From assembly GCA_052055015.1 (NCBI GenBank), contig JBQJIT010000087.1: a DNA stretch of 32,118 bases; one strand, 5' to 3'. Source of the stretch: Malassezia furfur (taxonomy: Eukaryota). This document shows positions 3,939-24,400 of this stretch, piece by piece; positions within the stretch are counted from its first letter, which is position 1, and each line of letters begins with the position of its first letter. The notes beneath the pieces were generated by a model that was not told where the DNA came from, did no database searches, and was given only the letters and a program-made list of their open reading frames with translations. A program made the translations under genes and the position numbers.

Positions 3939-6900
3939 TTAGCGATTCGGTGAGTCGTAAGGGGTGTCGAAGCGGAGCGCACCGTACGAACGGTTGCGGG
4001 CGTGGGTAGTACGCCCGTCGCTTACCGCCGAGGACGCCGCCTCTGGGGTGGTGGGGTCGAGGGGCACGGGGAAGTCGTGGTCGCCGCCAGGCAGGATGCT
4101 GCCCATGTCCATGGAGCCGCGCTGCTTGGCCACGTCGTCGCCGAGCGGGTCCTGCTCGTTGAGCGAGGCGATCGAGTGGTTCGGGATGCTCAAGAACGGC
4201 CCACGTGTGCGGGGGCGCAGCGGGTTGGCGTTTTCGTCCCAGCCGCGCTGAAGCATGTCCTCCAAATCGTTTTCCGAGAGCATTGACGAAAGGCGGTTCG
4301 TCTGCAGCATCGACATGGGCCGCGTGCTGTCGAGCAGCTCCGGCGGGAGCTGGTTCTCGTCGTAGCCGCCGATCTGGTCGCCCCAGCGGTCCTCGTCGAC
4401 ATCGGTCGAGATGGTGGCGGCGTCGTCGCGGTCGACGGCGACTGTCGGCGGCACCGAAGCCGGCGCGAGGCGGCCGTCTTCGGGCGCAAGGCCCGCGTCG
4501 TTGTAGAAGCCCTCGCCAAACTGGTTCTGGAGCTCCTGGCGGCGCCGCTCGTCGCGGCGCAGCTTGCGGATGCGCGAGCGCTCCCAGTCTTCCCATTGGC
4601 GCTGCGGCACGGCCTTGAGCGAGTCGTGGATCTCTTCGTCGACCGTCGCGGCGCTCTCGCCCTTGATCTCGCCCATGACCTTGCGTGTCTCGCCCCAGGA
4701 GAAGTCGTCAAAGTGCCAGAAGGAGTAGGCCGGCAGGATCAGATTCCACACGGGCAGGAAGATGAGGTAGATGATCAGCCAGCCCACAAACGAAGCCTTG
4801 AGCTGCGACAGGGTGATCACCACACCGGGCAGCACCAGCACAGCGATCAGCATCGTGATGGGAATCGCCGTCGCAAAGTCCTTGGGCGGGTTCACAATGG
4901 ACAGCACAATCAGCGTGTAAGTGAGCGAGATGGCGACCGGCAGCACGAGCGTGCCAATGAGGTCCATGAGCACGACAAATTGCATCGAGAAGCAAAACGT
5001 GCCACACAGGTCACGCACCAACACCAGCTCCATCAGGTTGTGCACGGTCGAGTTGATCCAGCGACGGCGCTGCGAGAGGAGCATACGGAAGGTGTGGGGC
5101 ACCTCGGTGTGGCACACCGCCTGCGGCACAAACACCATCTTACGGTGGGGGAAGGTGCGCAGCAGCATCGTGCTCAAAAAGCGGTCCTCGCCGAGCAATA
5201 GCAGATTCTTTTGGTGCAACGTCGTGACGATCGTCTGGCTGTACTCGCGCAGCACCTCGGGCTTGATCACGACTGGAATCCAGTCGTCGTCGTTCGCCTT
5301 GCGCGCCTTGACGCGGTAGATGCTAAAGCACCCCGGCAGACACGTCACACCACCAAACACACTCTCAAACGCCTTGACCTGGTGGTGCGAAATGAAGTAC
5401 TCAAACACCTGGATCATCGTGACCCAGCTCTGGGCCTTGTTCTCGATCCGCGTCTCACCACACGCGCCCATGATGCGGCTGTCGTTCATCATCGCGTCAC
5501 TCAAATGACGCAGCGCCGGCGGCTCGACCTTGGTGTCGGCGTCGACCATCAGCACCAGTTCAAAGAAATCGGGCGTGACGCCCATGAGTGCGTGTACTTT
5601 GCGGAAAAGGTCATAGTCCAGCGGCGTCATGGGGTCGTCGTACGTAACCCGCTGCAAAAAGTTGAGCAGGACCATCTGCGAGTCGCGCTTGCCACGGTTG
5701 CCGGGCTTCTTATCGTTCGCCTCGCTCGGCGTGCCGCACTTGGCCACAACGACCATGGGCACGGGTTCTCCGCCAGAGGGATCGATGTAGTGCCCGGCGT
5801 AGACAAGCGCCATGTTATGCGCCTTGGTGCCCGAGGCAATCGAGCCGTAGCTCATCGGCATCGGCGTGCCGAAACGCGCGTCGGGGCTCATCAGGCTCAC
5901 ACACACGTCCGGGGTACTGATCGTCTCGCCAAAGCCTGTCACCATACCGTCCGCCACGACAAACAACAGCTGCCGGTTCGCGGGGTAATGCGTTTTGGCG
6001 AGCGACGAGAGCGTCGCCGAGATGCCCTCGACGCCCTCCGAGTAGCACGTCACAAGGCACACCACGTACGGGTTGTTGCCAATGTCGCGCTGCGTCATGC
6101 TCTGCGGCAAATGCAGCGGTGCACCTGCATCCTTGCGTGCGGCGGTAGCGGCGACGAGCGGCGGCGCAATCGTCTTGTTCGCCCACGGCGCGACACCGCC
6201 CGACGAGGCATCCGCGGGGAGCACTTGGTGCGACAGGCGCTTGTTGCGCCGCGCCGCCTCGGTGTCCTCCTTCGCTGGGCGGCGCAGCAGCGCACGCGAC
6301 CCGGCAAAGTGGAACCAGAGCGCCATCGAGGTGCGAGCGAGCACGATGCCGAGAATCACGATCAGCGAGATGTACAGCACGATCTGCGAAATAAAACACC
6401 CCGTAGACAGGTAGTTGATGCGCCCGGCAATGTATTTGTCCTTGAGGCACTGCATCGCGTGCCGCGTCTCGGCGGTGTTGGTAAAGAGGCGCGTCGCGTC
6501 GGGGCCCTGGTGTGCGGCCTGCGCAAAGTGCATGCGGATCGCTTCATCCACCACGTCGCCTTCGATCGGATTGGGGTTCAGGTCGAGGTAGGGCGCCATG
6601 TTGAGCACCGTGCCGTCGAGCGTCATGAGGTTAGTGCCGTTCGACACCTCGTCCCAATCGAAGCCAAGCATGAGGTTCACGGGCTCAATGTTGAGAGTCT
6701 GCGCAATGTTGGGCGACAGCTGGTCCATGCACGGCGCGCGGTGGCCACGCAAGTTGATACACTCAAACTGCGTCGCATACACGCCCGTCTGGCCCAGGCA
6801 CGACGGCACCGAGCTGGCCGCGCGGCTCAAGTACGGCGTGAGATCCATACCAGGCTCCGTCTTCATACGTTGGTAGAAACCTTCGTCATTGAAGCGCGGG

Positions 6901-7660: not shown

Positions 7661-9281
7661 ATGGACTCCCTCGCGGTGCCGGCGCGTGCGGTCGTCGCCG
7701 TCGGCATGGGCGAGTCATGCACGACCACGACCCAGTACGACGCCGCTGCGGCGCACCGGGACATCCAGCAGCGCGACCGACTCGCGCACGACGTCTACCA
7801 TTCCATCCTCCAGACAGGGCGCGGCGACTGGATTGATCTGATGAACTGCGCACCGCTCGCAAGCCAGTACCACCTGAGCACGTACAGCACGTTCAAGTTC
7901 GGGTTCGGAGGTACGCCACCGATGCACGCACTGACCGCCAGGCGCTCCGTACGCCTACCTGCCCATGTCGCTGCAGCAGCCACTGCTCACAGAGACCATC
8001 CTCTCGCGCCAACGCGAGATCGAGCAACAGGCCTGGTGTTGGCGCCTGCACGCGACCGGCCCAGAGGCCGCCGAGGTCGACGCCGCGGCCGACGCCGTGG
8101 CCGACGCCGCAGCCGAGGCTTCGGCGCCCGACGCCACTTGCGCCAACGGTGCGCCGCCCGCGCCCGACGCACTCCCGCACGATACCCCGCCGCTGCTCCG
8201 CAAGGCGATGCGAGACGCGATCCAGTTGGCATGCATGGACGGCGAACAGCCTTTGCAGGAACCAGCGCCGTGCACCATCAAGACGAGCAACTCGCATCCG
8301 ATCCAGGTGAGCCCCATTCTGCCGCCGAGCATGCTGGATGCTCTCTCGGCTCAGGTGCTTGCGCACCTCCCGCCCGAGTATGCGGAATGCGCGAGCGCCA
8401 CCGACCCCGCGCGCGCCTGTGGCTACGTCCACCGCGGCCAGCGTATCGAGCCGGGCGAGTTTGCTGCGCACCTCTTGCACGCGCTGGAGGACCCCGAGGC
8501 GCATCTTACGGAGCAGGTCCGCGGCGAGCAGCTCATCCGCCTCCCGCCGAGTGTCGCACTCGACGAGATCGCGCGCGAGGCACCTCCGGGGTGCAAGGAC
8601 TGCCCCTCGACGCACCAGCCGGTCGAAGCGGGGCGCCTCGGCAACATGATCCTCTCGTCGTGCCCGGGCAAAAAAGTCCGGCTGAATGGTCCCGAGCGCG
8701 GGCGCGGCAGCGTATGCCGCGACCTGAAAATGGACCTCGCGCGCTACCGCGCGATGGGCGTGCGCGCGATCGTGTGCTGCCTCGACGACGAGGAGCTCAA
8801 GCTGCTTGGGTCTCCGTGCGCCGAGTACGTCGAGGAGGTGGCCTCGCTCGGCCTCGACTTGGTGCGTCTGCCGATCGCCGAGGGCTTTGCGCCGACGGAT
8901 TTGGTCAAGTTTGACATCATGATGACCGCGCTCATCCTCACCTACACGCTACGTGGCGCCTCAATTCTCGTGCACTGTCGCGGCGGTGTCGGCCGCGCGG
9001 GCCTCGTCGCGGCGGTGTGGGTGTTCAAGATGGGCTTTGTGTCGCCGCCGTCGCGCGCGCCGCCACCCGTGGCGTCGCTTGCCGACGCGATGCACGCGGC
9101 GCAGCGCGACTCGGAGGATGTGCTGCCGACCGTGCTGAAGCTCATCGAGGTTGTGCGCCGCCGCCGGAGCCTGCGGGCGATCGAAACGGCGGAGCAGGCA
9201 CGGTTCTTGATGGAGTATGTACGGTTCGTCCACCGCCAGGAGCACGCGCGTCGCTGCTTCCAGCGGTGCTGCAAGGTATAG
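7661..9281 (+). CDS. CDKN3-like cysteine-based (PTP/dual-specificity) phosphatase; intron 7911-7941 (31 nt)
   Basis: GNMILSSCPGKKVRL, CRDLKMDL, CCLDDEEL, catalytic HCRGGVGRAG and RAIETAEQ. Intron GTACGC..ACTGAC..CAG joins the upstream exon (LASQYHLSTYSTFKFGFGG) in frame to APYAYLPMSLQQP. Confidence 0.85.
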
Positions 9282-9282
9282 G

Positions 9283-10729
9283 CTAGGCAGACACATTTTC
9301 TTCCCACGCAATCGCGGCAAAGCTCAGCTGCCGTCAGGTTTGGCGTACGTACCAGCACCAGCAGGCCGCCGACCACGTTCTGCAGGCGCAGCGACGACGG
9401 ATCGTGCACCATACCGCCCAACGCCGCCATGGGGATCGTGAGCGAGAGACCAATCGTGGTGAAGAGTGGTGACGACTTGAGCATCGCCAGAAGATAGGCA
9501 AAGTCGCTGCGTCAGGATCTCGCACGTACCTCACGACGGTGATCGCCATGTTGACCACCACACCGAGCCACATGTTCGCGTCAGACGGCAGCGCGAGCGG
9601 CTCGATGCCCAGCCAGTCCAGCACCAGGCCCACGGGCCAGAACGCCACGAGGTTGAACAGGCCCACAAACCCGAAAAAGAGCGGCATCGAGATCCGGTCC
9701 TCGGACCCGATCCGCACCTTGAGCAGCGTTACGTACACTGCGTAGCCTGCGCATGTCAGTCTCGCCAAATACGCACACAGTGCCGACAAAATCGCTAGCA
9801 TATCGCCCAGCAACGGATTTGGTGCAGCCCCCGCAGACGCCGATGGCGTGCCGTGGTCCGACCACGTCACGAGTGCGACGCCCAGGAAACTGAGCACCAC
9901 CGACACCACTTTGCCCGGCGCAAACGTGTCGGTGCCGACCATGCTTCCGAGAAGCAGTGTAAAAAACCCGCTCGATGCACCGAGCGTCGTGCCACTCGCA
10001 ACGCTCGTGTAGCCCAGCGCCGCGACAAACGACCAGTTTGCTGCAAACCACACAACCGCGAACTGCATCGCCAGGATGCCCGTCTCGACGATCGACAGGG
10101 GCGGTAGATCGGAGGCAGGCACCATGCATACACTGTGCTCTGATACTCCCGCATCGTCGTCCGAGCCGTACGACGACGACACTGAATCGGCCATGAGCTC
10201 CTCGCGCTCCTCGAGCGCACGCACCGTAAAGCTACGGCCACGCGACAGGCCGCGCCGCGCCGGCCGCTTGTGCGGCGCAGGGCCAAGGTCAATGCACATA
10301 TTCAAGTTGCTGCGTGGTCGTCGTCCATCGATCGACGAGGGTCGCGGCGGCGAAGGGTCGATGCCGAGCGCGCCGCTCGGCGCGTGCGGCGCCGGCTCGT
10401 CGAGATGCCCAGCCGCCGCGATCGCGGGGTCGACAGGGTACATCGGCGGCAGGCGGAACCCAAGGCGCTCGTACCATGGCATGCGTCTGCCATCCGTAGG
10501 GACGCGCAGATCGGCACCAGAGATCCACAGACCCACGAATGGGACAAGGTAGGTGATGAACGACGCGGTGCTCAAATATGTTACCGCAAATGGCTTATTG
10601 TAGCCGTGTGTGCTGCGTCAATCACACCACGTACAGCACAGCACTCGCAAGAAAATTGGATGCGGTCCATAGCACGTCAACCAGCAGCACCAGCCCCGCG
10701 CCGACCGCGTACCGATGCGCGTGCGCCAT
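9283..10729 (-). CDS. DMT/EamA-superfamily transporter, SLC35F5 / yeast YML018C-Thi74-like; introns 10613-10634 (22), 9747-9776 (30, in frame), 9507-9529 (23), 9328-9352 (25)
   Basis: The spliced product has LLVDVLWTASNFL, YNKPFAVTYLSTASF, WFAANW..AALGYTSVASGTTL.ASSGFFTL, LSALCYAVYVTLLK, FFGFVGLFN and SDFAYLLAMLKSSPLFTTIGLSLTIP. It ends LSFAAIAWEENVSA* (TAG at 9283-9285). Confidence 0.88.
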
Positions 10730-10787: not shown

Positions 10788-12628
10788 ATGGCCAGTGGAA
10801 CGGCGGCGCCTGCGGACGACGCGCACGCGTCGCTCGGGCTATGTGTCGGCAGCGGCGAAGAGACGCGCGCGCGGTCCGTGTTTGAGATGCCGCCCGATGC
10901 CGACGATGGGTGGGTGTGGTGCCGTGCGCGCGACCCCGAGGGTATGCACCGCATGTTTGCGCACATTGTGCACTATGTACGCGACGTTGAGCTCGGCGCA
11001 GTTGAGCCCAACGTGGTTGGTGACGACCGCACGCGCGTGCTGAGCGATCCGCTGGAGGAGTGCCCTACGCGCGAGGCGAACCCGGAGTACTACATTCGCG
11101 TATGTTCGCACTTAGACTCACCCAGATTGCACGGCCCACCTCGCTGCAGGCCATCACACATCGGATCGTCCATTGCGAGTATGCACAGCCGGCATTGTTT
11201 GAGCAAGACATGCTTCAGCTCTTTTCCAATGCGCGAACGTGGTATGGGATAGGCACGCCAGGATACAAGGAGATGGTGACGCTCCAGCGGCTCTACCAGC
11301 AGCTCACTCCGTCCAAGGCGAGTATGTACGACGGCGCAAACACCAAGCATGTCAAGGCGCGCTCAAACGACATTGATCTTGTGGACCAACGCCGCGCGCG
11401 TGCCAGTGCCGTCGACTTCTTTTCGTCCAGCGCATACGGGCCCGGCAATGAGCCACACACGCTGCACGAGCCACACACGCTGCTCGACGCCGCGTGGTTC
11501 AAGGGCCGCATGTACCGTACCGGCGACTGGGTGCACCTCATGAACCCCGTTGACCCATCACGCCCGATCGTTGCGCAAATCTTCCGCGTGTACAAGCGTC
11601 GCGACGTTCCAGGCACGTTTTTGACAGCCAATTGGTACTATCGGCCCGAGCAGACATCGCACGGTGCAGCACGGGTCTTTTATGAGAATGAGGTGCTCAA
11701 GACGGGCATTTTTGGTGACCATGTCTTGGAAGACATTGTAGAGGAGATTCTCGTGCTCTTCCACACCAAGTACGCTCGTGCACGGCCCAAGGCCGCGTAT
11801 AGCGCGCCCCAGGTGCCCACCTATATCGTCGAGTCTAAGTACGACGTGGCCCGGGCCGAGTTCCACAAAATTCAGAGCTGGGCCAGCTGTGTACCGACCG
11901 AGGTCCGTGAAAAGCGCACACCCATGGACGTGTTTGCCGTGCCGAGCTCCATGCCGCCGCGACAGCCGTCGCTGCTCACGACCAATGCCTATGCACCTGG
12001 ATTTGGACAGTTAATGGAGCACGCACGGGTCGACGACGAGCCGTACGAATATCGCGACCTGTTCGACACCGGCACGAAGGAGGAGGCTCAGGCGACGCCC
12101 GCACCACCGTCGATGCCCGCACCACGGCCGCCGACCGCGGGCCTATCGGCTGCGCATCCCGACCGCTTGCGTGCGTATGCGGCATTTCACATGGTGGCGA
12201 GCGACATTGCGCGCCGCACGAGTCCGGCGTCCTACGAAGCGATCCAAGCGGCACTCCTTGCCGATCCCGACATGTCGGCTGGCGCGCTCACGGCCCTGAG
12301 CGTGCGGCACAATATTCCCGACAGTCTGCTTGCACGCCTGCGCGATGCGGCGCGCAGTGCCGGCGTCCTGGAAAACGCCAAGACCGGCACCGCACCACGC
12401 GTGCCGAGCCTCGCGCCGGTGCTGGCGGCGCACCGCGCCGAAGCGCAGTTTACGCCACTGCCCCACGGCACCGCCGAGCTGTTCCGTCGCGACGCCGAGG
12501 GTCGGCTGCTGTGGTATGCGGCGCCGCCCCTAGATGGATGGCACGCGTCGACCGCGGTGCAGGATGGCACGACGCACCTGCCGTTGCCGAGCCTGGAATA
12601 CCTGTACGCGACGGTCCGCAAGACCTAG
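10788..12628 (+). CDS. Bromodomain + BAH-domain chromatin protein, RSC1/RSC2-like; intron 11100-11125 (26 nt); start codon uncertain
   Basis: Bromodomain-like segment PTREANPEYYIR|IARPTSLQAI..FEQDMLQLFSNARTWY; BAH domain YRTGDWVHLMNPVDPSRPIVAQIFR..WYYRPEQT..FYENEVLKT; C-terminal ELFRRDAEGRLLWYAAPP and LPSLEYL resemble the Rsc1/2 CT motifs. Confidence 0.82.
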
Positions 12629-12650: not shown

Positions 12651-13723
12651 CTATGGGTTCTTGCTTGCCTCGTCCTGTGCGGCGGCCGCCTGCCGTACCG
12701 GTGCAAAGTACGGGTGGCGCTGCGCCTCGAGGGCCGTGAGGCGCTCCTGGTGGTCGTAGCGCAGCAGGTGGTCCAAGAAGTCGAGCGCTTCGTCGGACAC
12801 GTACCGCTCGTTCTCGGGCGTGACAAAGCGCGGCCACGGCTTGCGCTGGTACCGGCCCAGTATGCCGTCATAGTGCGAGTCGAGCTCAATGTTGTACTTT
12901 TCCAAATAGGCAAATAGCCCATCGGTGCCCAGCACCTTGCAGATCTTCACAAGCTGGTCGTAGTTGTCGTGGCCGTGGAAGAACGGCTCCTTGCGGAAGA
13001 TCATGCTGGCGAACATGCAGCCCAGGCTCCACATATCCAGCGAGTAGTCGTATTCCTGGAAATCCACCAGCAGCTCGGGACCCTTGAAGTAACGCGAGGC
13101 GACGCGCACGTTGTATTCGGTATACGGGTGGTAAAACTCCGCCAGGCCCCAGTCAATCAGACGCAGCTTGCGCTTTTCGTGGTCAATCATGACGTTGTGG
13201 GGCTTCACGTCGCGGTGCATGATGCCGCGCGAATGACAAAAGTCAAGCGCCTTGAGCAGTTCAAAGATGTAGTAGCGCACGTCGAAGTCGGTAAAGCGTG
13301 GGTACAGCACCTTGAAATCGGTGTTGTTCACATACTCCGTAATGATCGACGGGGTTTTCGACTGCGGGTCGCGCACCACATCAATCAGCTGCACCACGTT
13401 GGGACCGCCACGAAGGTTTTGCAGGATTTTGATTTCACGCTTGATCTTCTTCTTCTTGACCGGCTTCAGCACCTTAATGATGCACTTGTCGTAGCCAGGA
13501 GAGGCCACATTAATTCCTTCGAACACTTCCGAATACTTGCCGCGCCCCACCTTTTGCAGAATCTCATAGTGGTCCTGCGTTCCCCTGCGGTTAGTCGGTC
13601 GCTTACCATTGCAACTGGAGATTGTCTGCATCAGATCAATTCGTACGTACCATAATCCCACCATGACCGTCCTCGCTTTTCGTTCGCGTCTGCGTACACC
13701 CGCGCCACGCTCAGTCCGGACAT
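12651..13723 (-). CDS. CKA1: Casein kinase II catalytic alpha subunit; introns 13626-13650 (25 nt) and 13585-13606 (22 nt)
   Basis: Spliced N-terminus [56 protein letters not shown]2-specific [35 protein letters not shown] and [11 protein letters not shown]. Confidence 0.97.
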
Positions 13724-13814: not shown

Positions 13815-15149
13815 CTACGGTGCCGGCGCTGCGCCGTGCGGCACAGGCGGCGTGGGGTCAATTTTGCGCGTGGGGTCCATAAACTGCGCGACCAGCTCGT
13901 CGGTGACCTGCGCCTTGCGCTGCTGGAAGTCGCCCACAACGCGTTGAAGCTCAGCGATGCAGCGCTTCTTGAGCTCGCCAGTTAGCAGCCGGCCAGCACG
14001 GTAGTCCTCCGCAATCTGCGTAATCTCCTCGTCCGAGTCCACAAAGAACGTCAGGTACTGGAAGCTAACATCCACGTCGGGGTTGCCACCCAACCGGCGC
14101 TGCTCCTCCAGAGTTTCTTGACCACCGGAGAACGCGTGCTTGTTGATCTTGTTCTTGATCTGGTTGGGCGTGTCGTGCATAAAGATGCTCGACGTCTCGT
14201 TCGACGCACTCATCTTCGTCTGCGAGCCCTGCAATGCCGGGAAGAACTTGGAGTGAATCAGCGAAGGCTTAGGGTACTTGAGACGAACGGCCACGTCGCG
14301 CGTCTGACGGAAGTAGGGATCCTGGTCGATCGCACACGGAATCAAACAGGGCACGTCACTCTTTGTCCCATAGATTTGCGGGAACGAGTTGGAGAACGAG
14401 GGGGCTGCCTGCACAGCGACGAAGTGCACCTTGCCGATGCTGTCACTGTCATTGAACCCAAACGTGCCCTTCGACTGGTTTACCGTAATATAGCGCGCGA
14501 TGCGCACAATGTTCTTGTAGAAGGCACCTCCCACATAGTCCAGATCCGAGAAGATGAACGTCTTGTCCAGCTTGAAACCGCACGCAATAATATCGCGCGC
14601 GTTCTCGTATGCATACTTTTGCGCCTGCTCAATCTTCAGTTCATTCTTGAACAGGAACTTCTCGTCATCAGTGAGCTGGATAACCAGGGGCACATCAAAC
14701 ACATCCTGCAGCCACTGGGTGAACAAGAAGGGAATTAGATGGCCCAGGTGCATCGACGAGCTGCTAGGGCCACGGCCGGTGTATAGGTAGAACGGCTTCT
14801 GTTGCTCGTAGCGCGTGAGAATGAGGTCAAGCTCGCTGCGCTAATGAGCTAATACCACGTACCGATGACTGAAGAAGCTGCCACGACGGAGTAGAGGGTG
14901 CGGCTTGCGCCCCGTCAGGCGCTCGAAACGCTCCAGGAGAGCAGCATCAATCGGCTTCGTGCCAAACTCCTTAATGAGCTTGTTATAGTCGATCGAGACT
15001 TGCTTGCCATCGACGTAGCCACCCTCGACATCCCAAGGCGTTACCTTCTGCGCAGTATCACTTGCAGCGGCAGGCGCGCCGCCGTCAGACACCACCGAGG
15101 TCTTGGCCAAATCCTTCGCGAGGGATTCCATATCGTTGTTCTGCTCCAT
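13815..15149 (-). CDS. WRS1: Cytoplasmic tryptophanyl-tRNA synthetase; intron 14836-14862 (27 nt, contains in-frame TAG)
   Basis: [43 protein letters not shown] (HIGH equivalent), [17 protein letters not shown] (KMSKS equivalent) and [10 protein letters not shown]. The ORF-track start at 15194 is GTG; ATG is at 15149. Confidence 0.96.
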
Positions 15150-15209: not shown

Positions 15210-15604
15210 ATGGTGCGTCGCATGGCTGACCTCAGTTGATGTTCTCTGCGTTCAAGACGCTTACTGGGCAAACAGTCGTCGTCGAGTTGAAGAATGACCT
15301 TGCCATCCAGGGAACGCTCAAGAGCGTCGATCAGTACGTGAGCTGACTTACACAGATTCCTGAATTTCAAACTCGACGACATCAAGGTATTGGACCCCGG
15401 ACGTTACCCCCACATGGTGCGTTTTCTCACTGACAGCAGAGCGCTGTGCGCTCGACCTTTATCCGTGGGTCGGTTGTGCGCTATGTGTATATTCCCTCTG
15501 CCGCCGTCGACACGCAACTGCTGGAGGATGCGACGCGACGAGGTAGGTTGCCCTACATGACCCACGCTAACCGTGCAGAAGCAGAGACGCAGCGCCGTCG
15601 CTAA
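15210..15604 (+). CDS. LSM2: U6 snRNA-associated Sm-like protein Lsm2 (absent from ORF track); introns 15213-15235 (23), 15334-15355 (22), 15417-15439 (23), 15543-15578 (36)
   Basis: Spliced M|LMFSAFKTLTGQTVVVELKNDLAIQGTLKSVDQ|FLNFKLDDIKVLDPGRYPHM|SAVRSTFIRGSVVRYVYIPSAAVDTQLLEDATRRE|AETQRRR* matches the Lsm2 signatures VELKND, SVDQFLN, YPHM, FIRGSVVRYV and VDTQLL. Confidence 0.95.
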
Positions 15605-15654: not shown

Positions 15655-17716
15655 TTATTGGGTATTTTCGCCGCGCCCTCGACGCGACATGGCCCAGGCC
15701 TTATGCTTGGACGAGAGGAAGGAGCCCAAGTTACCCAGCGCCGCGTAGCCCTGGGCCCCTGTCGCTTGTATCGCGGAGAGTGTCTCCTTTTTCCGAGTGT
15801 CCCAGGTCGCAGCAGTCTGTGTGGCGCTCTGTTCTTCCTCCGGCTCCGCGGCCCCGGCATCTTCAGAAGCGATCAGCTCAGCGCTGTTCCGCTGGGAACG
15901 CCCGGCTCGTGGTGTCTGCCAGCCCGCGTTGAGGCGCGCCAGATCTGACCGCCACGAGCTTGCGACTTTGGAAAGACCCGCACTGCCCGCCTGAATGGCC
16001 GCGCCGATAGCTTCGCGAGTGGGTGCCAGACTTTCATCGATGCGAAGATCGTGCAGGCCCGCCGAGAGGCGAAGCGCTGCGTCTGAGAGAACAGTCACCT
16101 TACCAGAGAAGGGATGCTTGCACCCAATCAGGTCGCAGAGTGTGTCGTCGGTTAGCGCATTCCATTGCAAGAACACACGTGTCTCGCGAAAAAGTTGAAT
16201 TGCTTCGCGACCATACTGCGTGACGGGCGAGTTGGGATCCATCGGTCCATCAGGCGCACGGGGAGGGAGCTGGGCGGCATACTTCGCTGTAGCCAAGAAG
16301 CCAAACACATACTCCTCGAATCGTGCGCGAAGGTAGTCGTCGCTACCCTCGTACTGCATCATAATCGGCTGGGCAGGATCATCTTCCTTCCACGTCTCCT
16401 GCACAACGTGGATGATTTGGTCCATCCAGTTTCTGTCGGCGGGTGTGAGCGAAACCGCACTACTCAGCGCGGGGTCGGTAAAATGAAGTTGCGTATGCTC
16501 CAGCTGCGGTCAGTCGTGGGGTCACATACATCGACAATGACGTCGGGTTTGTGTGCCCGTTGTTGCTTAAAGATGCTGTTGGTTGTCCCAACCAGCCACG
16601 ACTCGCTGGCGAGCATATCAATCTGTTGCAATGGACAACATGGCTGGAAGAATGCCCCCTCGCTGAACAAAGGCAAGGGTAATCCCATGAAAGCAAGCAA
16701 GCTGTTCCGATCGGACATGCGGAGCGACTCGGCCTTGACCCGACCCTGCGACAACGAGTTGAGTTCGGGGGAGGCTGCGTCTTGAAGTGACGAGAGCAGC
16801 GCTGGTATAAGGGCCACAAGGTTGTACTGAGTAGTGCACAATTTCTCCACAGGGTAACCGTAAAAGAGTATCTTGCGCTGAAGCAGAACGAGTTTCACTA
16901 ACGAAAGCGCTTTGAAGCGCCATTGGTGTACAAACTCACGGATGGATGTACCCATATACAGTGCACCATCCGCACCCTTCACTTCGTTCTTTGTATCTTT
17001 ATTGGAAGCTTGTCGCACCGTAGGCTCCAGGGTGTCGTAAAACTCCTCCAGTAACGCGACGTTGTTCAGATCCCTCTGGGCAAAATAGGCGCGTGTCACC
17101 ATTAAGAGCTTTTCGCGGAGTGGTCCGAAAATTGGCTGCATCAGTAGACACACGCACCTCAGTGGCAAGCACTACGACTGCTTTCTGTACCATGCTCCGC
17201 GTCACCTGAGCGCCCTTGTTAATCAGTTCATCGGATTGGATCTGGCGGTTGCACGAAATGCCAAACAGCGTGCTTGGGTACAGCGATGCACAAAGCATAT
17301 GAAAATAGCAGAAGTCTTCCTCCGACTGTGTTAGATTGGATGCGTACCAAATGGCTTCCGTCAGGGAGCGCCATGAAGGGGAGCCGACTGCATAGCTCTT
17401 CGTTCTCCATGAGCGAATTTGGATAAGCGTATTCCACTTGGGGGCCCACGAGGTGGTTCTAGGTTAGACATTCACATACAAAGTCAACAACACAAACGCC
17501 CAAGATTATCTGGGTACCTTGCGCGTGCAGGGGTGGGCGAGGTCCTCCAGTCCCCGCAGGTTGTGCGGCACGTTCGACCGCAGGTTTAGCCGGGGCTGGC
17601 GGCGTTGGTATCGCTCTCGAGGAAGCCGCAGAGGCAGCTGCATTGCCTTGATCCGTACCTCCTACTTTCCCCAGACGTTGAGAGTCCATGCCTTCCTGCT
17701 CTGCCGGTACATCCAT
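15655..17716 (-). CDS. AVL9: Late secretory pathway DENN-like protein Avl9; introns 17459-17479 (21), 17326-17347 (22), 17136-17157 (22), 16504-16529 (26)
   Basis: Spliced VCVVDF|NHLVGPQVEYAYP, LPFMALPDGSHL|SEEDFCYFH, TLFGISCNRQI, VTRSMVQKAVVVLATE|PIFGPLREKL..VTRAYFAQ, FFQP..PLQQIDML, LVGTTNSIF, LTPADRNWMD and YEGSDDYLRARFEEY. Confidence 0.93.
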
Positions 17717-17823: not shown

Positions 17824-18482
17824 ATGGATGCCTCCACGGCATCCAATGCAGAGCATGCACGGCCATTGCCTCTGACGAGCAATGCAGATACATCGACTAT
17901 ATCCTCAGAGACAAGTCTGTTTGCTGGAGACAATGTTTCCCAATCCATCTTGTCCCAACCGAAGGCGAGCGTCGATACGCTTGTAAGCGCGCAACCCGGG
18001 AAAACTGGTGTGCCGCCGACTGATCCTTTTCCCATCCGGTTTGTCTTAGAGACTCATCTGGCAGTATACCCCGTCAATTCAATGGGAAAGAAACAATTCA
18101 ATTTGACGATGTGGTTCCTCCGGCCCTTGTTGGCAGAGTAGGTCCTACTCCGTACTAAGTACAGGTTGATGAGGAACATTACAGGAGTCATGTCAAAGCA
18201 ATGAATGGTATCCTGGAATCCTCTGCTAGTCCGTGCTATGGACTTCTCGACAATGTGCTCACCAATATGACATTCCAGCTTTGGCCCCTGGTCGTGGGTA
18301 CCCACCATCAAAGAGTAGGTGAGCGTCTAACTCAGTGCATGGAGCAATTCTATCGCGAGCTGGACACGTTCCAGCACTCGGTGTTCACACCAGCGGCTTT
18401 GTACGTGGCGCCACCTCGCGATACCGCCTTTCTATATCTGGAAGTGCACAATGCGCGCTGCTCAGGCGACCAAGTTCCTTAG
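17824..18482 (+). CDS. ERF4: Erf4/Shr5/GOLGA7-family Ras palmitoyltransferase accessory subunit; introns 18039-18064 (26), 18138-18164 (27), 18315-18335 (21, in frame)
   Basis: Spliced PIR|IPRQFNGKETIQFDDVVPPALVGR|VDEEHYRSHVKAMNGILESSASPCYGLLDNVLTNMTFQLWPLVVGTHHQR|CMEQFYRELDTFQHSVFTPAALYVAPPRDTAFLYLEV follows the Erf4 domain pattern (RIPR..QF..P..L.GR..N.IL..LDN.L..TH..PR..AFL.LE). Recognised by eye; divergent. Confidence 0.75.
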
Positions 18483-18522: not shown

Positions 18523-18621
18523 GACCCATTGGTACAGTGGTTAGCACGTGGAGCTGTTAATACTGGTCGTGTGTACGACTACAAAACTCTAAGGTCGCTG
18601 GTTCGATTCCAGCATGGGTCG
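18523..18621 (+). tRNA. tRNA-Asn(GTT) with 26-nt intron (copy 2, identical to copy 1)
   Basis: GACCCATTGGTACAGTGGTTAGCACGTGGAGCTGTTA-intron-ACTCTAAGGTCGCTGGTTCGATTCCAGCATGGGTCG; cloverleaf with A and B boxes. Confidence 0.95.
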
Positions 18622-18642: not shown

Positions 18643-18773
18643 GACCGCATCCCTGTACATGCGGCACCACTTTTGGTCGCGATAAGGTTCGGCGCAACAG
18701 CGCAGAGGCACAATCTAGAGGGTACACAGCTACACAAGCACAGAGCTCCATCTACATTCACTTGTGCTGAGGG

Positions 18774-19702
18774 TTAGTCACTTCTTGTGTCACGTACCCG
18801 TCGGTATTCTGCGACAAGCATCGCGTGATCGCGCTCGTACGGCTCCAGCGTGAGCTGTTCCCTGGGGCGGAACGAGCTCTTCTTCAGCTTGTTGACCTCC
18901 TCGGCAAACACGGCCTCAGGCTGCGCGGTTGAGTCAATGCAGCTGGCCTTGATCGAAATCACAACAGCGCCGCCGTTCTTAAGGAAGTACTCGGCGTTGT
19001 ACGCAACAATACGGGCCTGGTCGGGCTGCGCAACGTCCGCAAAGATGACATCGACCGTGCCGACGAGCATACGGTATTTCGCGGGGTGGCGCGCATCCTC
19101 GATAATCGGGATCACATTCGTGCGCTTTTTGGCCATGTTGATCAGATCACGGCCTGACCGGTGCGAGAACTCGACCGCGTATACAATCCCCTCAGGACCC
19201 ACAATGTCGGCGACGTGGCTCACACTGGTACCGCTCGCGGCACCCAGGTAGAGCACCTTGGCGCCCGGCTTGATGTGAATGTTGTCCAGACCACCGAGAA
19301 CACCAGCCGCAAGCTTGGAGCGGAACGGGTTCCACACACGGTATTCCACCTTGGCCACCGCCGGGTTCTCGTCCGTGCTCGGTGCCGCGTTAGGGTTCTC
19401 CACCGAGATACGCTTCTCGCCATAGACCGACTCGCCGGGCACCAGGTTCTTGGTCACCAAAAGGTGCTCCTTGCCCTCGGCCACGAACACACCGTCGTGG
19501 CGGTGCGGCTTGACCATGACATTCGAGCCACCGCCCTTGCCACCACGGGCACCGCCACGGCCACCGCCGCGACCGCCGCCGAAGCCACCGCGGCCGCCGC
19601 CGCGTCCACCACGGCCCGGGGGTCCACCACGTCCACGACCCGGAGGTCCGCCACGTCCACGATCACCTGGGGTCAGCCAGGGCCACACATACCAAATGCC
19701 AT
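18774..19702 (-). CDS. NOP1: Fibrillarin, rRNA 2'-O-methyltransferase; intron 19667-19692 (26 nt)
   Basis: MAFG|DRGRGG GAR domain, [62 protein letters not shown] and [13 protein letters not shown]. Confidence 0.97.
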
Positions 19703-19848: not shown

Positions 19849-21309
19849 ATGCCGCGCGAGATTATTACGCTCCAGGCAGGCCAATGCGGCAACCAGATTG
19901 GCTCACAGTTCTGGGAGTACCTTTGCCGTGAGCACGGCATCTCCCAGGATGGCACACTCGAGGATTTTGCGACTGAGGGCCAAGCGGGTGATCGGAAAGA
20001 CGTCTTCTTCTACCAGGCGGACGACGAGCACTATATCCCGCGCGCTATTCTCGTGGACTTGGAACCTAGGGTATGTCGCGCAGCATTCTCACTGTGCAGG
20101 TTATCAATAATATCATGGCAGGGCCATACCGAAGCCTGTACAACCCGGAAAACATTTACAGCAGCAAGGACGGCGGCGGTGCCGGCAACAACTGGGCACA
20201 AGGCTACGCGGCCGGCGAGAAGATTTCCGACGAGCTGATCGAGATGGTAGACCGTGAGGCAGATGGGAGCGACAGTCTTGGCGTACGTGGCTCGAGCTCA
20301 CACAGGGATTCTTCTTGACACACTCGATTGCCGGCGGTACCGGCTCCGGTCTGGGCAGTTTCTTGCTGGAGCGTCTGAACGACGCCTTCCCCAAGAAGCA
20401 GATCCAGACGTACAGTGTTTTCCCCAACTCGGAGGAGACGTCTGATGTGGTCGTTCAGCCATACAACTCGGTACTCACGCTCAAGCGCCTTGTGAACAAT
20501 GCCGACAGCGTTGTGGTACTGGACAATGCTGCGCTCAGTCGCATTGCAAGCGACCGTCTGCACATGCAGAACCCAAGCTACAGCCAGACGAACCAGCTGG
20601 TAAGCACGGTGATGGGGGCGTCCACGACGACGCTGCGGTACCCCGGCTATATGAACAACGACTTGGTCGGTATTCTTGCGTCGTTGATCCCTGCCCCACG
20701 GCTGCACTTCCTCATGACTTCGTACACGCCGTTTACCTCGGACAATGTGGACCGCGGCAAGGCAACGATGAAGACGACGGTGCTGGATGTGATGCGGCGA
20801 CTGCTCCAGCCCAAGAACCGGATGGTGAGCATCTCTGGACAGAGCAAGACAAGCTGCTACATGTCCGTGCTCAACATCATCCAGGGAGAGGTCGACCCGC
20901 GCGATGTGCACAAGAGTCTGCTGCGTATCCGAGAGCGGCACCTGGCGAGCTTTGTGCCGTGGGGGCCTGCGAGCATTCAAGTGGCCTTGTCGCGGCGCAG
21001 TCCCTACGTGGAGAGTTCGCACCGCGTGAGCGGGCTAATGCTCGCCAACCATACCGGCATTGCAAGCATGTTCAAGCGTACGGCGGACCAGTACGACAAG
21101 CTGCGCAAGCGCAACGCGTTCATGGAGATGTACAAGCGCGAGCCCATGTTTCAAGGGGGCGACTTGTCCGAATTGTGCGTCCTACAACTACTGACCACAG
21201 CGACGAAGCGCGCGAGACGCTGGCAGAGCTCATGTCCGAGTATCGCGCCGCCGAACGACCCGACTGTACGTTGCGTGCTTACCCAGACATTTCCGGCCCC
21301 GACGCGTAG
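19849..21309 (+). CDS. TUB4: Gamma-tubulin; introns 20071-20099 (29), 20283-20305 (23), 21175-21200 (26), 21266-21286 (21, in frame)
   Basis: [78 protein letters not shown] and SGLMLANHT; the spliced C-terminus [23 protein letters not shown] matches the gamma-tubulin tail. Confidence 0.97.
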
Positions 21310-21446: not shown

Positions 21447-24400
21447 ATGCGCGATACCTCCTCGTTCCCTGGCAATAGGGGCGAGTCAGAGGCGCGGCCG
21501 AATGTGCGTCTCGAGACAGACGCACATGCGCCCGACGCCGCTGGCGGGTGGGAGCCGCTGGCGTCACCGTCACCGCCGCTCCTCTCGCCGCTGACCGACC
21601 GCCCGCCGAGCGTGGATTTGAGCACACGTCCGCCGACGCGCTGGTCGAGTGGCGAGTCCCTCGCAGGTGCATATGCCGCGGACGCCATGCACGATGTACG
21701 CAGTCCGCCGCTCAAGGCGTACGGCGGCGACGACGACGACGACGTGGAGCACCAAGATATGGGCACGTTTACCAACCGCGGCGCATCGGACCCGCGCTGG
21801 CAGAGCTTTGCATCGCTGCCGCTCAACGATGACGGAGAAAGCAAGCGGTCGACGTCCGTGCTAGGCGACGCGTTCGATACCTACATGCTCCGCGACGGCG
21901 ATTCACCCAGGCACCCCGACCGCTTCCCCGCCCAGGAGCGGCACGCGGGGTGGGCCGAGTACCTACCCACGAGTGCCATTGACGAGTACGACCAAGGCAA
22001 CGAGCCTTCCGATGACGAAGAGGCGCGCGCGCCCTCCGCGGAGTCGCAAAGTGGCCCGCGTCCACGCGAGACACTATCTCAGCGTCTCCAAGACCTGGCG
22101 CAGAGCGGGCGCGAGGCGATCGGGCGCGCCAAGGAGCGCATGCGCCTCGCGAGCGACTCGATGCCCTGGCGGCAAGAGCGCTCGCGCGAGGGCCCGTGGC
22201 TGCCAATGGAGGATGCAGACCACCCCGACGAGAGCGGTGCGGTGCCGGACGTACGGCCGGTGCATGCGCGGCTACGGGGCAAGACGCTGCTGTACTTTGG
22301 TCCCACGCATCCCGTGCGCGTGTGGTGCGCGCGCGTGCTCGAGTCGTGGTGGGTGGAGCCGGTGATCCTCGCGCTGATCACGACGAACCTGGTGGTGTTG
22401 ATCGTGTCGTCGAGCCGGGACATTTTTACGCACCCGCCGCGGTACGACATGCTGACCAGCGGCGAGCAGATTGTGCTGCTGTGTATTTTTTCCTTGTATA
22501 CCCTGGAAATGGCCGCGCGCGTGATTGTGTCCGGCCTGCTCATCGACCCGCCGCCGCCCGAGACGGCGCATCCGTCGGTGCAGGTGGTGCAGAATGCCTC
22601 CACCGACTCGCTGCCGAGCAAGGAGGCGGCCGAGGTCGTGCCCGTATCGATGCAGAGCAATACGGTGCCCACCATGTACCGCGTGTACCGCATGCTGCGC
22701 GAGCAGGTGGAGCGCATCCTGCACCCGTATGGCACTGCGGCGCGGGCGCATGCGGCGACGCACCTCGAGGGCGTCAAGCCGACCGAAGGCATCACAAGCG
22801 ATGGCCAGGCGCACACGCTGCCGCTCGGGCCACTGCCGGACACGCCGTGGGGCGGGTCGGTGTCGGAGGAGCACACCGTGTTTTACCGCGCGTGGCAGCA
22901 CTGCATGACGGTGCTGCTGCGCTTTTCGCGCGGGATCACGGGCAATGTGAGCGTGTTGTCCGAGCGCGCCTACCTGCGGCACAGCTGGAACCGCGTCGAC
23001 ATCCTCGCGATCGTGTGCTACTGGGTGGCTATGGCGCTCAGTCTGACACACACCGAAGAGACGCCGCACCGGCACATTTACCTGTTCCGTGCGGTGAGCG
23101 TGCTGCGGTGTGCGCGGCTAATGGCGCTGCCGAGCGGCGTGGTCATGATTCTGCTGTCGCTCAAGCGCGTCGCACCGCTGCTGATGCGCGTCGCCTACTT
23201 TATCGGGTTCTTCATGCTGCTGTTCGCCATCATCGGCATCCAGAGCTTCAAGGGGTCGTACCGGCGGCAGTGTGTGTGGATCGGCGATTTGAACAACGAG
23301 CAAGGCTTCAACTATACCCTCGACCAGCTGTGTGGCGGCTCGTACGATCCCCTCAATTCAAGTGCCAAGATTGGGCACGTCCTGCTCGACGGCCGGGCGT
23401 CGGGCGAGCGGCCCAAGGGCTACATCTGCCCGTACGGCCAGCTGTGTATGGAGCAGGAGGTGAATCCGAACAACAACGTGCAAAGCTTCGACAATGTCTT
23501 TACGTCGCTCCTGCAAGTGTCCATCGTCATCTCGCTCAACGGATGGAGCGACACGATGTACGACATGATCGATGCCGACTACTACACGGCGTGCATCTTC
23601 TTCATCTTTGGCATCATCCTGCTCAACTTTTGGCTGGCCAATCTGCTTGTCGCGGTGATCACGCATTCGTTTGCGTCGCTCAGCGCGCAGATGGAGCACA
23701 GCGCGTTTGCCGCGATCGTGACGCACCCCGAGCCGGTGGCCGACGCCGACGACACGCGGCGAAGGCGGCGCATGCGGCGCCGGGCGATCGAGCTGTACAA
23801 GCGCGCCTGGGGCTACACCAAGTACCTGTGGCTTGCGTTGATTGTGCTGAGCATCTCGATTCAGGGCTCGCAGAGCGCCTACCAGTTCCCCGATGCGCAG
23901 CTATGGCGCGACCGTGCGGAGCGCTACTTGACGATCGCGTTTGACGCGGAGATCGTGCTGCGGTTCGCGACGTATGCGCTGGACGGCAACCCGCGGGCCT
24001 TCCTGCGGAAGAAGCACAACGTGGTGGACCTGTTTCTCGCGGTGATCACGTCGGTGATCCAGATCCCGGCCGTGCACGAGTCGGGGTGGTACCCGTGGCT
24101 GACCTTTTTCCAGCTCGCGCGTTTCTACCGCGTGATTGCGGCGATTCCGCGCATGCGGGTGCTGCTGCAGCGTGTGTTGGGTTCGGTGGACTCGCTGTTC
24201 AACATGATTGCCTTCCTGATCATGGTGATTTTCATGGCGGCGCTGTTCAGCGTGCAGCTCTTCCGCGGCGACATCCATGAAGAGGACGACGACGGCGAGG
24301 AACACGAAATGACGTGGAAGCAGCTCTTCAACGGCTTCCTCGCGGTATACCAGGTGTTCTCCTCGGAAAATTGGACCGACCCACTGTTCAATGTACTCAG

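Follow-up and report, generated by a model that had tools for sequence, protein, structure and literature searches.

Three introns of 21 nt, in the genes AVL9, ERF4 and TUB4 (gamma-tubulin), were found in a 32,118-nt stretch of the genome of the skin yeast Malassezia furfur (contig JBQJIT010000087.1 of assembly GCA_052055015.1; the whole stretch that was analysed is called the window), and among the introns curated they are the shortest size class seen for this splicing machinery. The AVL9 segment at positions 17459 to 17479 on the complementary strand (GTATGTGAATGTCTAACCTAG) is, judged by its signals and its conservation, a genuine spliceosomal intron of the U2 (GT-AG) type. All results were obtained from sequence and comparative evidence, and introns were curated by hand across the 32-kb window. 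When 50 introns from two species are taken together, their best description is a spacing of 16 + 5, in which the putative branch-point adenosine (branch A) is at intron position 16 or beyond and is followed by at least 5 nt. We consider it rather probable that the branch A never lies closer than 16 nt to the 5' end nor closer than 5 nt to the 3' end of an intron, giving a minimum length of 21 nt, and the sequences suggest a fixed minimum spacing of the splicing machinery. A hard floor, and a steric limit behind it, are what we infer from these distances.

If AVL9 intron 1 is retained, an in-frame TAG separates ...ILGVCVVDF from NHLVGPQVEY..., this stop codon being the 3' splice site itself (17459 to 17461). 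The spliced junction VVDF/NHLVGP aligned without a gap to 14 of 14 homologs, which ranged from Malassezia to Mucorales and Lipomyces, and the Avl9 protein is continuous once intron 1 and three more introns of 22, 22 and 26 nt have been removed. A sequence-only reading of this DNA had held that the intron must be excised for full-length Avl9 to be made, and the stop codon together with the gapless junction bears this out. Only one GT/AG pair yields the spliced product; a nested 17-nt alternative was rejected because it breaks the frame. The 5' splice site, GTATGT, was read directly from the sequence at 17474 to 17479, and the branch box, CTAAC (17463 to 17467), is the sole TNA-type pentamer in the intron. 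This motif places the putative branch A at 17464 (intron position 16), leaving 5 nt to the 3' end. All of these elements are on the complementary strand.

A related yeast provided a natural control. Three of its contigs (L001 to L003; 51% GC), obtained from a metagenome scan with a gamma-tubulin exon, are syntenic with the window from 10.3 to 31.5 kb and share 65-80% DNA identity with it; among the other 77 metagenome loci, 13 (L004 to L016, tblastn for TUB4) were intronless or unrelated. Pairwise alignment showed that nine window introns are absent from L001 by their exact length, with the flanking codons conserved: those of CKA1 (25 and 22 nt), the tRNA synthetase gene (27 nt), LSM2 intron 2 (22 nt), AVL9 intron 3 (22 nt), the BAH/bromodomain gene (26 nt), NOP1 intron 1 (26 nt), and TUB4 introns 3 and 4 (26 and 21 nt). 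Because of this exact-length absence between conserved codons, the borders of these nine introns are as secure as those obtained from complementary DNA. At 13 further positions, including AVL9 intron 1 (a 27-nt intron in L001) and ERF4 intron 2, the L001 ortholog has an intron of different length at the same site, and SLC35F-like introns 2 to 4, which lay outside the L001 comparison, are supported by homologs instead. In all, 18 introns of 23-36 nt were identified in L001, at least four of which are specific to it (2216 to 2242, 27 nt; 6451 to 6476, 26 nt; 8447 to 8482, 36 nt; and 10905 to 10929, 25 nt). In TUB4, the 21-nt intron of the window contrasts with a different, 25-nt intron of L001 that is placed 28 nt upstream. 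The presence or absence of introns differed at approximately half of the positions compared (window 10.9-31.5 kb against L001), and the comparison hints that minimal introns may be gained or lost unusually fast between the two yeasts.

The other 21-nt introns, ERF4 intron 2 (GTAGGTGAGCGTCTAACTCAG, 18315 to 18335, putative branch A at 18330) and TUB4 intron 4 (GTACGTTGCGTGCTTACCCAG, 21266 to 21286, putative branch A at 21281), are both on the direct strand. Both are in frame and contain no stop codon, so they are not obligatory by reading frame, and their status as introns is shown solely by comparison with the related yeast and with homologs. At the ERF4 site L001 contains a 26-nt intron that would cause a frameshift if retained, and the Pfam Erf4 match runs on across the window junction; since the L001 counterpart cannot be read in frame, the 21-nt segment is taken to be an intron and not coding sequence. 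In TUB4, exactly 21 nt are absent from the L001 ortholog, and the spliced product ...RPDY/ISGPDA aligned without a gap to 13 of 13 full-length homologs, whereas retention would add seven residues. A gamma-tubulin chain from the PDB could be aligned as far as RPD-Y (a weak match, E = 1.2). By these comparisons all three 21-nt introns are real, with AVL9 intron 1 alone being obligatory by reading frame. The seven intron segments listed in the sequence-only reading were all present in the window, with matching coordinates, lengths and sequences.

In total, 32 introns were curated in the window, with lengths of 21 nt (three), 22 nt (five), 23 nt (five), 24 nt (one), 25 nt (four), 26 nt (four), 27 nt (two), 29 nt, 30 nt, 31 nt (two), 35 nt, 36 nt (two) and 67 nt. 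All 32 have GT...AG ends, and the three of 21 nt begin with GTATGT, GTAGGT and GTACGT. Branch positions were assigned by motif, the main rule being to take the 3'-most acceptable box with at least 5 nt after it, and are given below as (p,d), where p gives the place of the putative branch A, numbered from the first base of the intron, and d the number of bases that follow. All 31 introns of 36 nt or less have a CTRAC-like pentamer at 5-9 nt from the 3' end and no polypyrimidine tract, and most introns have a single such box. Values of d in these 31 introns were 5 (12 introns), 6 (nine), 7 (six), 8 (two) and 9 (two); the 67-nt intron of ERF4 departs from the pattern at approximately 26.

By motif, each of the three 21-nt introns is (16,5), as had been claimed from the sequence alone, and each contains one branch-like pentamer, CTAAC in AVL9, CTAAC in ERF4 and CTTAC in TUB4. 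The minimum p of 16 was found in five introns, these three together with CKA1 intron 2 (16,6) and intron 2 of the ABC-class ATPase gene (16,7), and the minimum d was 5, in 12 introns. For introns of 22-23 nt it had further been claimed that p is 16 or 17 and d is 5-7. This agreed with the CKA1 and ABC introns just named, with two AVL9 introns and one SLC35F-like intron, all (17,5), and with LSM2 introns 1 and 3, both (17,6); LSM2 intron 2 has two branch candidates, the A at position 17 of a CTTAC box with 5 nt after it, or the A at position 13 of a CTGAC box with 9 nt after it, and is either (17,5) or (13,9). While d is spread over 5-9 in introns of 24 nt or more, in the 13 introns of 23 nt or less it is always low enough that p does not fall below 16. 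When d was drawn from the longer introns, the chance of p reaching at least 16 in all 13 was about 9e-5 (n = 30 for this test and for the minima; SLC35F-like intron 2 and the 67-nt intron were left out). The same rule gave minima of 16 and 5 for the 18 introns of L001 as well. Under an alternative rule, in which the best-scoring box anywhere in the intron was taken, p was at least 16 in 29 of the 30 window introns.

Support for the 5-nt side that appears independent of these assignments comes from four introns in which, by comparison with orthologs or homologs, an AG 3-4 nt past the branch A is skipped. In LSM2 intron 3 (direct strand) the AG at 15435 to 15436, 3 nt past the branch A, is passed over and the one at +6 is used. 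Use of the proximal AG would give a 20-nt intron (15417 to 15436), and both the 23-nt and 20-nt forms are in frame; the shorter form was rejected in favour of the 23-nt form because it adds a residue missing in the ortholog, the L001 sequence YPHM/MAVKSTFI having the same length as the 23-nt form of the window, YPHM/SAVRSTFI. In the intron of the TrpRS-type synthetase gene (complementary strand) an AG at d = 4, which would give a legal length of 22 nt, is skipped, and exactly 27 nt are missing in L001; the candidate branch boxes of this intron are CTCAT (A18) and ATTAG (A21). In L001 itself, AVL9 intron 1 skips an AG at +3 and uses +6, since VVDFNHLVGP admits no extra residue, and LSM2 intron 4 skips +3 and uses +8.

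Introns shorter than 21 nt were sought with a strict scan of both strands, which required a 5'-terminal GTRNGH, a YTDAY whose A is followed by 2-9 nt, and a 3'-terminal YAG, and the background was estimated from 200 dinucleotide shuffles. For lengths of 21-26 nt there were 25 matches against 3.1 expected, an approximately 8-fold enrichment, and intron-like signals are present beyond chance. These matches comprised 20 curated introns, three alternative borders inside curated introns, and two located elsewhere. For lengths of 12-20 nt there were eight matches against 2.6 expected, six of which were alternative borders within verified longer introns; no independent, supported intron was found among the eight, and the level below 21 nt is considered to be that of chance. 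The onset of lengths in the window is abrupt, with no introns of 20 nt or less followed by three, five and five at 21, 22 and 23 nt.

A number of short candidates were rejected on inspection. An 18-nt segment in frame in CCH1 (22442 to 22459) encodes six residues that align without a gap to the ortholog, the matches at 54 to 71 and 51 to 71 on the complementary strand are antisense to an RPB5 exon, and five others, of 15-19 nt, start at alternative 5' sites nested within verified introns. The 25-nt introns at 13626 to 13650 (CKA1) and 9328 to 9352 (SLC35F-like gene), both on the complementary strand, open with the tandem GTACGTAC. According to homology, the upstream GTACGT is used in both and the nested site is not, and the corresponding 21-nt forms at 13626 to 13646 and 9328 to 9348 were ruled out in this way; the nested geometry would be a legal (16,5) in CKA1, and (15,6) in the SLC35F-like gene.

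Several points weigh against a hard floor at 16 + 5. The sample consists of 32 introns from 32 kb, a size at which a rare class of 18-20 nt would be invisible, and seven of the 32 were placed by reading-frame or Pfam logic alone (two in RPB5, two in the ABC-class ATPase gene, the phosphatase intron, intron 1 of the MgtE/SLC41-like gene, and ERF4 intron 0). Branch positions were assigned by motif, and a rule that takes the 3'-most box only if at least 5 nt follow it already contains part of the conclusion, making the argument partly circular. Under the best-scoring rule LSM2 intron 2, which the sequence-only reading had itself put forward as a counter-candidate, is the sole exception in the window, and two of the 18 L001 introns are ambiguous in the same manner. 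One of these two contains the same tandem as LSM2 intron 2, CTGACTTAC; as its upstream A gives d = 12, well beyond the usual range, the downstream A is mildly favoured. The shortest L001 intron is 23 nt, and the corner (16,5) is not reached there. In addition, the spliceosome of Stentor coeruleus works with a branch A at position 10 (PMC9505925), so 16 is at best a limit of this lineage's machinery and not a general one. The floor claimed from the sequence alone is upheld within the sample, where none of the 32 introns of the window or the 18 of L001 is below 21 nt and the minima are 16 and 5; as a genome-wide statement, its hardness goes beyond what 32 introns can carry.

It is possible that the introns are real and 21 nt is simply the edge of a small sample, in which case lengths across the genome would tail off below 21 nt and there would be no sharp limits. 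The number of introns, 32, agrees with this, as does the stop at 23 nt among the 18 introns of L001, where the apparent floor has shifted with sample and species; LSM2 intron 2 possibly branches at A13, and the available text on M. sympodialis gives a mean of 30 bp only. We nevertheless regard this explanation as rather unlikely, given the abrupt onset at 21 nt, matches at chance level below that length against the enrichment at 21-26 nt, the compression of the 3' spacing in short introns, and the four skipped proximal AGs. Far less probable, to the point of being nearly negligible, is that short in-frame coding insertions account for the ERF4 and TUB4 segments and that the AVL9 TAG is read through. 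Both segments are multiples of three without stop codons, and public open reading frame (ORF) calls of prokaryotic style span such segments (P0121; P0241 and P0242), but the TUB4 ortholog is without exactly these 21 nt and the seven residues are missing in all 13 full-length homologs, the same-site ERF4 intron of the ortholog cannot be read in frame, full splice signals are present in all three segments, and all 14 homologs agree at the AVL9 junction. Excision by a non-spliceosomal route, of the tRNA type or the Ire1/HAC1 type, appears to be an unnecessary reading given the full spliceosomal signals in every case.

A real floor could also be set during early recognition or during the assembly and activation of the B complex, and not by the geometry of the catalytic core, and to this we give a chance of somewhat under one half. 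In human extracts, short distances between the 5' splice site and the branch are limiting at assembly and at the B-to-Bact transition (PMC6692369), and the B complex holds two intron helices 15 nm apart, corresponding to a minimum of approximately 52 nt (PMC6692369). With such a spacing, a distance of 16 nt would need a pre-catalytic complex that is arranged differently. Set against this, the window data do not tell the steps apart, and Stentor reaches position 10 with a conserved set of small nuclear RNAs (PMC9505925). The sequence-only reading had pictured the U6/5' splice-site and U2/branch helices back to back; such an arrangement at catalysis may be one possibility among several.

These introns contain hardly anything beyond three signals: the 5' splice site (GTRNGT), a branch box of the CTRAC type, anchored 5-9 nt from the 3' end, and YAG. 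By motif, the 3' spacing is squeezed to 5 in the shortest introns, and the branch stays at position 16 or beyond. If the 16 + 5 spacing is a real limit, a minimal intron would break down into 6 nt for the 5' site, a linker of 4 nt, 7 nt for the branch region and a tail of 4 nt. The 5-nt limit may represent the reach for bringing the 3' AG into the catalytic centre after branching, a reading adopted because Stentor and Yarrowia show the same value. The 16-nt limit may represent the shortest loop that fits between the 5' splice-site and branch helices in the spliceosome of this lineage, acting either during assembly and activation or at catalysis. We put forward tentatively, as one candidate account, that the spliceosome of the furfur clade has two separate hard spacings, one of 5 nt that is perhaps universal and concerns docking of the 3' AG, and one of 16 nt that is specific to the lineage and would require a much more compact pre-catalytic complex, and that it would be a convenient model.

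The remaining AVL9 introns are on the complementary strand, as is intron 1. Intron 2 (17326 to 17347, 22 nt, (17,5)) would cause a frameshift if retained and is supported by homolog alignment and by a 24-nt L001 intron at the same site. Intron 3 (17136 to 17157, 22 nt, (17,5)) is one of those absent from L001 by exactly its length and is also supported by homolog alignment, and intron 4 (16504 to 16529, 26 nt, (20,6)) would cause a frameshift and has a 25-nt L001 intron at the same site. ERF4, on the direct strand, contains two introns besides the 21-nt one. Intron 0 (17983 to 18049, 67 nt) was placed by reading-frame logic only and is the weakest of the set; it is the sole long intron, with a CTGAT approximately 26 nt from the 3' end and a pyrimidine-rich tail, and a 31-nt intron is located near this position in L001. 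Intron 1 (18138 to 18164, 27 nt) contains an in-frame TAA and a CTAAG box giving (21,6), and L001 has a 23-nt intron in the corresponding region. In TUB4, also on the direct strand, intron 1 (20071 to 20099, 29 nt, (21,8)) and intron 2 (20283 to 20305, 23 nt, (18,5)) are supported by homologs and by L001 introns at the same sites, and intron 3 (21175 to 21200, 26 nt, (20,6)) by homologs and by the absence of exactly 26 nt in L001.

LSM2 is on the direct strand and has four introns. Intron 1 (15213 to 15235, 23 nt, (17,6)) is directly 3' of the ATG and matches a 26-nt L001 intron at the same site, intron 2 (15334 to 15355, 22 nt) is absent from L001 by exactly 22 nt, and intron 3 (15417 to 15439, 23 nt, (17,6)) corresponds to a 30-nt intron in the L001 ortholog. 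Intron 4 (15543 to 15578, 36 nt, (28,8)) is in frame without a stop; its removal restores the conserved ...RRE/AE..., and L001 has a 29-nt intron at the same site. On the complementary strand, a CKA1 micro-exon of 19 nt (13607 to 13625) is flanked by intron 1 (13626 to 13650, 25 nt, (20,5); supported also by translation) and intron 2 (13585 to 13606, 22 nt, (16,6)), exactly 25 and 22 nt being absent in L001. The intron of the TrpRS-type tRNA synthetase gene (14836 to 14862, 27 nt, complementary strand) contains an in-frame TAG and is supported by translation and by the absence of exactly 27 nt in L001, and that of the BAH/bromodomain gene (11100 to 11125, 26 nt, (21,5), direct strand) by the absence of exactly 26 nt. 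The NOP1 (fibrillarin) gene, on the complementary strand, has a 26-nt intron 1 (19667 to 19692, (20,6)) that is absent in L001, the gene start reading MAFG/DRGRGG in the window and, without an intron, MAFAGRGG in L001. Its intron 2 (18767 to 18797, 31 nt, (24,7)) has a 29-nt L001 counterpart at the same site and is followed by a conserved HK-stop.

The SLC35F-like gene on the complementary strand has four introns. Intron 1 (10613 to 10634, 22 nt, (17,5)) is supported by homologs, an annotated M. furfur protein and a 24-nt L001 intron at the same site. Intron 2 (9747 to 9776, 30 nt, (21,9)) is in frame without a stop, and its ten residues are missing in 10 of 12 homologs, the other two being unspliced ORF calls. 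Intron 3 (9507 to 9529, 23 nt, (18,5)) and intron 4 (9328 to 9352, 25 nt, (19,6)) are supported by homologs and the M. furfur protein, and the C-terminus ...LVLLSFAAIAWEENVSA agrees with homologs only under the 25-nt form of intron 4. With the four introns removed, the model has 448 amino acids, of which 423 are identical in a gapless alignment to the annotated M. furfur protein and 409 in one to an M. brasiliensis protein, placing the source of the window in the M. furfur clade.

RPB5 (direct strand) contains introns of 36 nt (137 to 172, (29,7)) and 35 nt (271 to 305, (28,7)). At the former, Pfam RNA_pol_Rpb5_C positions 1-26 lie before and 29-59 after the intron; the latter was placed by reading-frame logic and gives a C-terminus typical of the family. 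In the ABC-class ATPase gene (direct strand), intron 1 (2549 to 2573, 25 nt, (20,5)) has a weak TTGAT box and was placed by frame logic between ABC_N and ABC_ATPase, and at intron 2 (3085 to 3107, 23 nt, (16,7)) the ABC_ATPase match resumes in another frame at approximately profile position 150; profile coordinates are unbroken across both this junction and that of RPB5 intron 1. Near the 3' end of the same gene, a candidate 24-nt in-frame intron (3821 to 3844, direct strand; GTATGT...CTCAC...CAG) was left out of the count of 32. It falls in the C-terminal MRB1590_C domain, where the Pfam match has 110 residues for 99 profile positions. A 31-nt intron in the phosphatase (PTP-SAK) gene (7911 to 7941, (24,7), direct strand) and intron 1 of the MgtE/SLC41-like gene (31510 to 31533, 24 nt, in-frame TAG, (18,6), complementary strand) were placed by reading-frame logic, and intron 2 of the latter (31377 to 31401, 25 nt, (18,7), complementary strand) has a 24-nt L001 intron at the same site.

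The window is 55-69% GC with densely packed genes, and a Pfam scan of open frames indicated approximately 17 eukaryotic genes. These include RPB5, an ABC-class ATPase, chitin synthase, a phosphatase, the SLC35F-like transporter, the BAH/bromodomain protein, CK2 alpha, the class I tRNA synthetase, LSM2, AVL9, ERF4, fibrillarin, gamma-tubulin, a CCH1-type channel, BCS1, and the MgtE/SLC41-like transporter, and all of the best named relatives of the window proteins are from Malassezia. Codon-score frame tracks and a dynamic-programming gene finder were too noisy to serve as more than leads; the spurious long AVL9 introns and the spurious third intron of RPB5 that they produced were discarded on hand curation. 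Two identical tRNA genes were found by Rfam (RF00005, 49.8 bits) at 488 to 586 on the complementary strand and 18523 to 18621 on the direct strand, each interrupted after the anticodon loop by a 27-nt insertion. The loop sequence, CUGUUAA, makes the anticodon of both look like GUU (Asn), and L001 positions 8109 to 8216 are approximately 95% identical to them. An ARAGORN scan of the window called no tRNA, missing both. A 23-nt intron-like match (612 to 634, direct strand; GTGAGG...CCTAAT...GCAG) lies in non-coding sequence between a tRNA gene and a cytochrome b5 reductase gene, and could be an intron of an untranslated region or a chance match.

Tiny introns are handled poorly in public gene models of this clade, as homolog alignments revealed. 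In the M. furfur model P0243, 19 residues beside the 23-nt intron are missing, as is the N-terminus, the M. brasiliensis model P0299 overlooks the final 25-nt intron, and the M. vespertilionis Avl9 model P0002 is without exon 3. An M. nana gamma-tubulin entry, taken from a listing and unaligned, has 356 amino acids against approximately 450 in full-length relatives. Several metagenome ORF calls run through introns, and the affected public proteins include P0134, P0121, P0122, P0241 and P0242. A gene finder allowing introns down to 21 nt and micro-exons down to 19 nt, with the branch box placed 5-9 nt from the 3' end, would mend such models.

Very short introns in Malassezia have already been published. 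For M. sympodialis, the curated annotation lists 5350 introns averaging 30 bp, of which 99% are supported by RNA sequencing (PMC5389616), and a review mentions "very short introns" in the genus (PMC7426719). These accounts concern the same genus, the same phenomenon and a similarly compact genome, and in the available text of both (PMC5389616, PMC7426719) no minimum length, branch positions or spacing rules are given; the word "branch" does not occur in PMC5389616. Literature searches found no account of branch geometry in Malassezia, which is weak evidence as subscription journals were mostly outside their coverage, and on that evidence the 16 + 5 geometry apparently has not been published.

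A close parallel is found in Stentor coeruleus: in its introns of 15 and 16 nt, the branch A occupies position 10 or 11 and 5 nt follow (PMC9505925). Like the shortest introns of the window, where the branch points are putative, these lie near an apparent minimum length and have the branch A at a fixed place followed by 5 nt; there, too, a tight lariat has been argued for on steric grounds. Stentor introns are AU-rich, have a weak branch consensus, are of nearly one length and branch at 10-11, not 16, whereas those described here have strong yeast-like signals, are GC-rich and range upward from 21 nt. On the 3' side the likeness is to intron-poor eukaryotes with 3'-anchored branch points, such as Yarrowia lipolytica, in which TACTAAC is separated from the AG by two nucleotides, compared with four in Trichomonas and Giardia (Irimia and Roy 2008, PMC2483917). 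Yarrowia shares a short, constrained distance from branch to AG and the lack of a polypyrimidine tract, with 5 nt being the minimum here, but introns of this group are not short overall (median approximately 200 nt in Yarrowia), so no 5'-side limit comes into play (PMC2483917). In humans, as proposed here, the limiting quantity is the distance from 5' splice site to branch and not total intron length; the human minimum of approximately 50 nt has been traced to B-complex geometry and activation and not to catalysis (PMC6692369), and the limit here would be approximately one third of that value.

Introns below 30 nt are also known from ciliates, microsporidia, dicyemids and myxozoans (PMC13644364) and from nucleomorphs (PMC6009652). 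In the available text of a 2026 survey of introns below 30 bp, ciliates, microsporidia and dicyemids are given as the exceptions and Malassezia is not named (PMC13644364). These lineages share with the present introns a convergent, extreme shortening and canonical GT-AG ends. Myxozoans show the opposite anchoring, in that longer introns have their putative branch A farther from the AG (PMC13644364). The other sub-30-nt lineages are parasites or ciliates, whereas the present introns are found in a free-growing, transformable yeast. If the 16 + 5 spacing holds genome-wide, its two numbers would bind any structural model of this spliceosome, and deletions of single bases could be tested in a culturable, transformable host, which is impractical in ciliates, nucleomorphs and parasites. 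Should the account of two separate spacings be true, this would be the first convenient genetic model for minimal-intron splicing, since this yeast is amenable to culture and transformation and strong signals of the yeast type have been retained in its introns. Malassezia is a new lineage example of a known minimal-intron system, with unusually clean signals and a tractable host.

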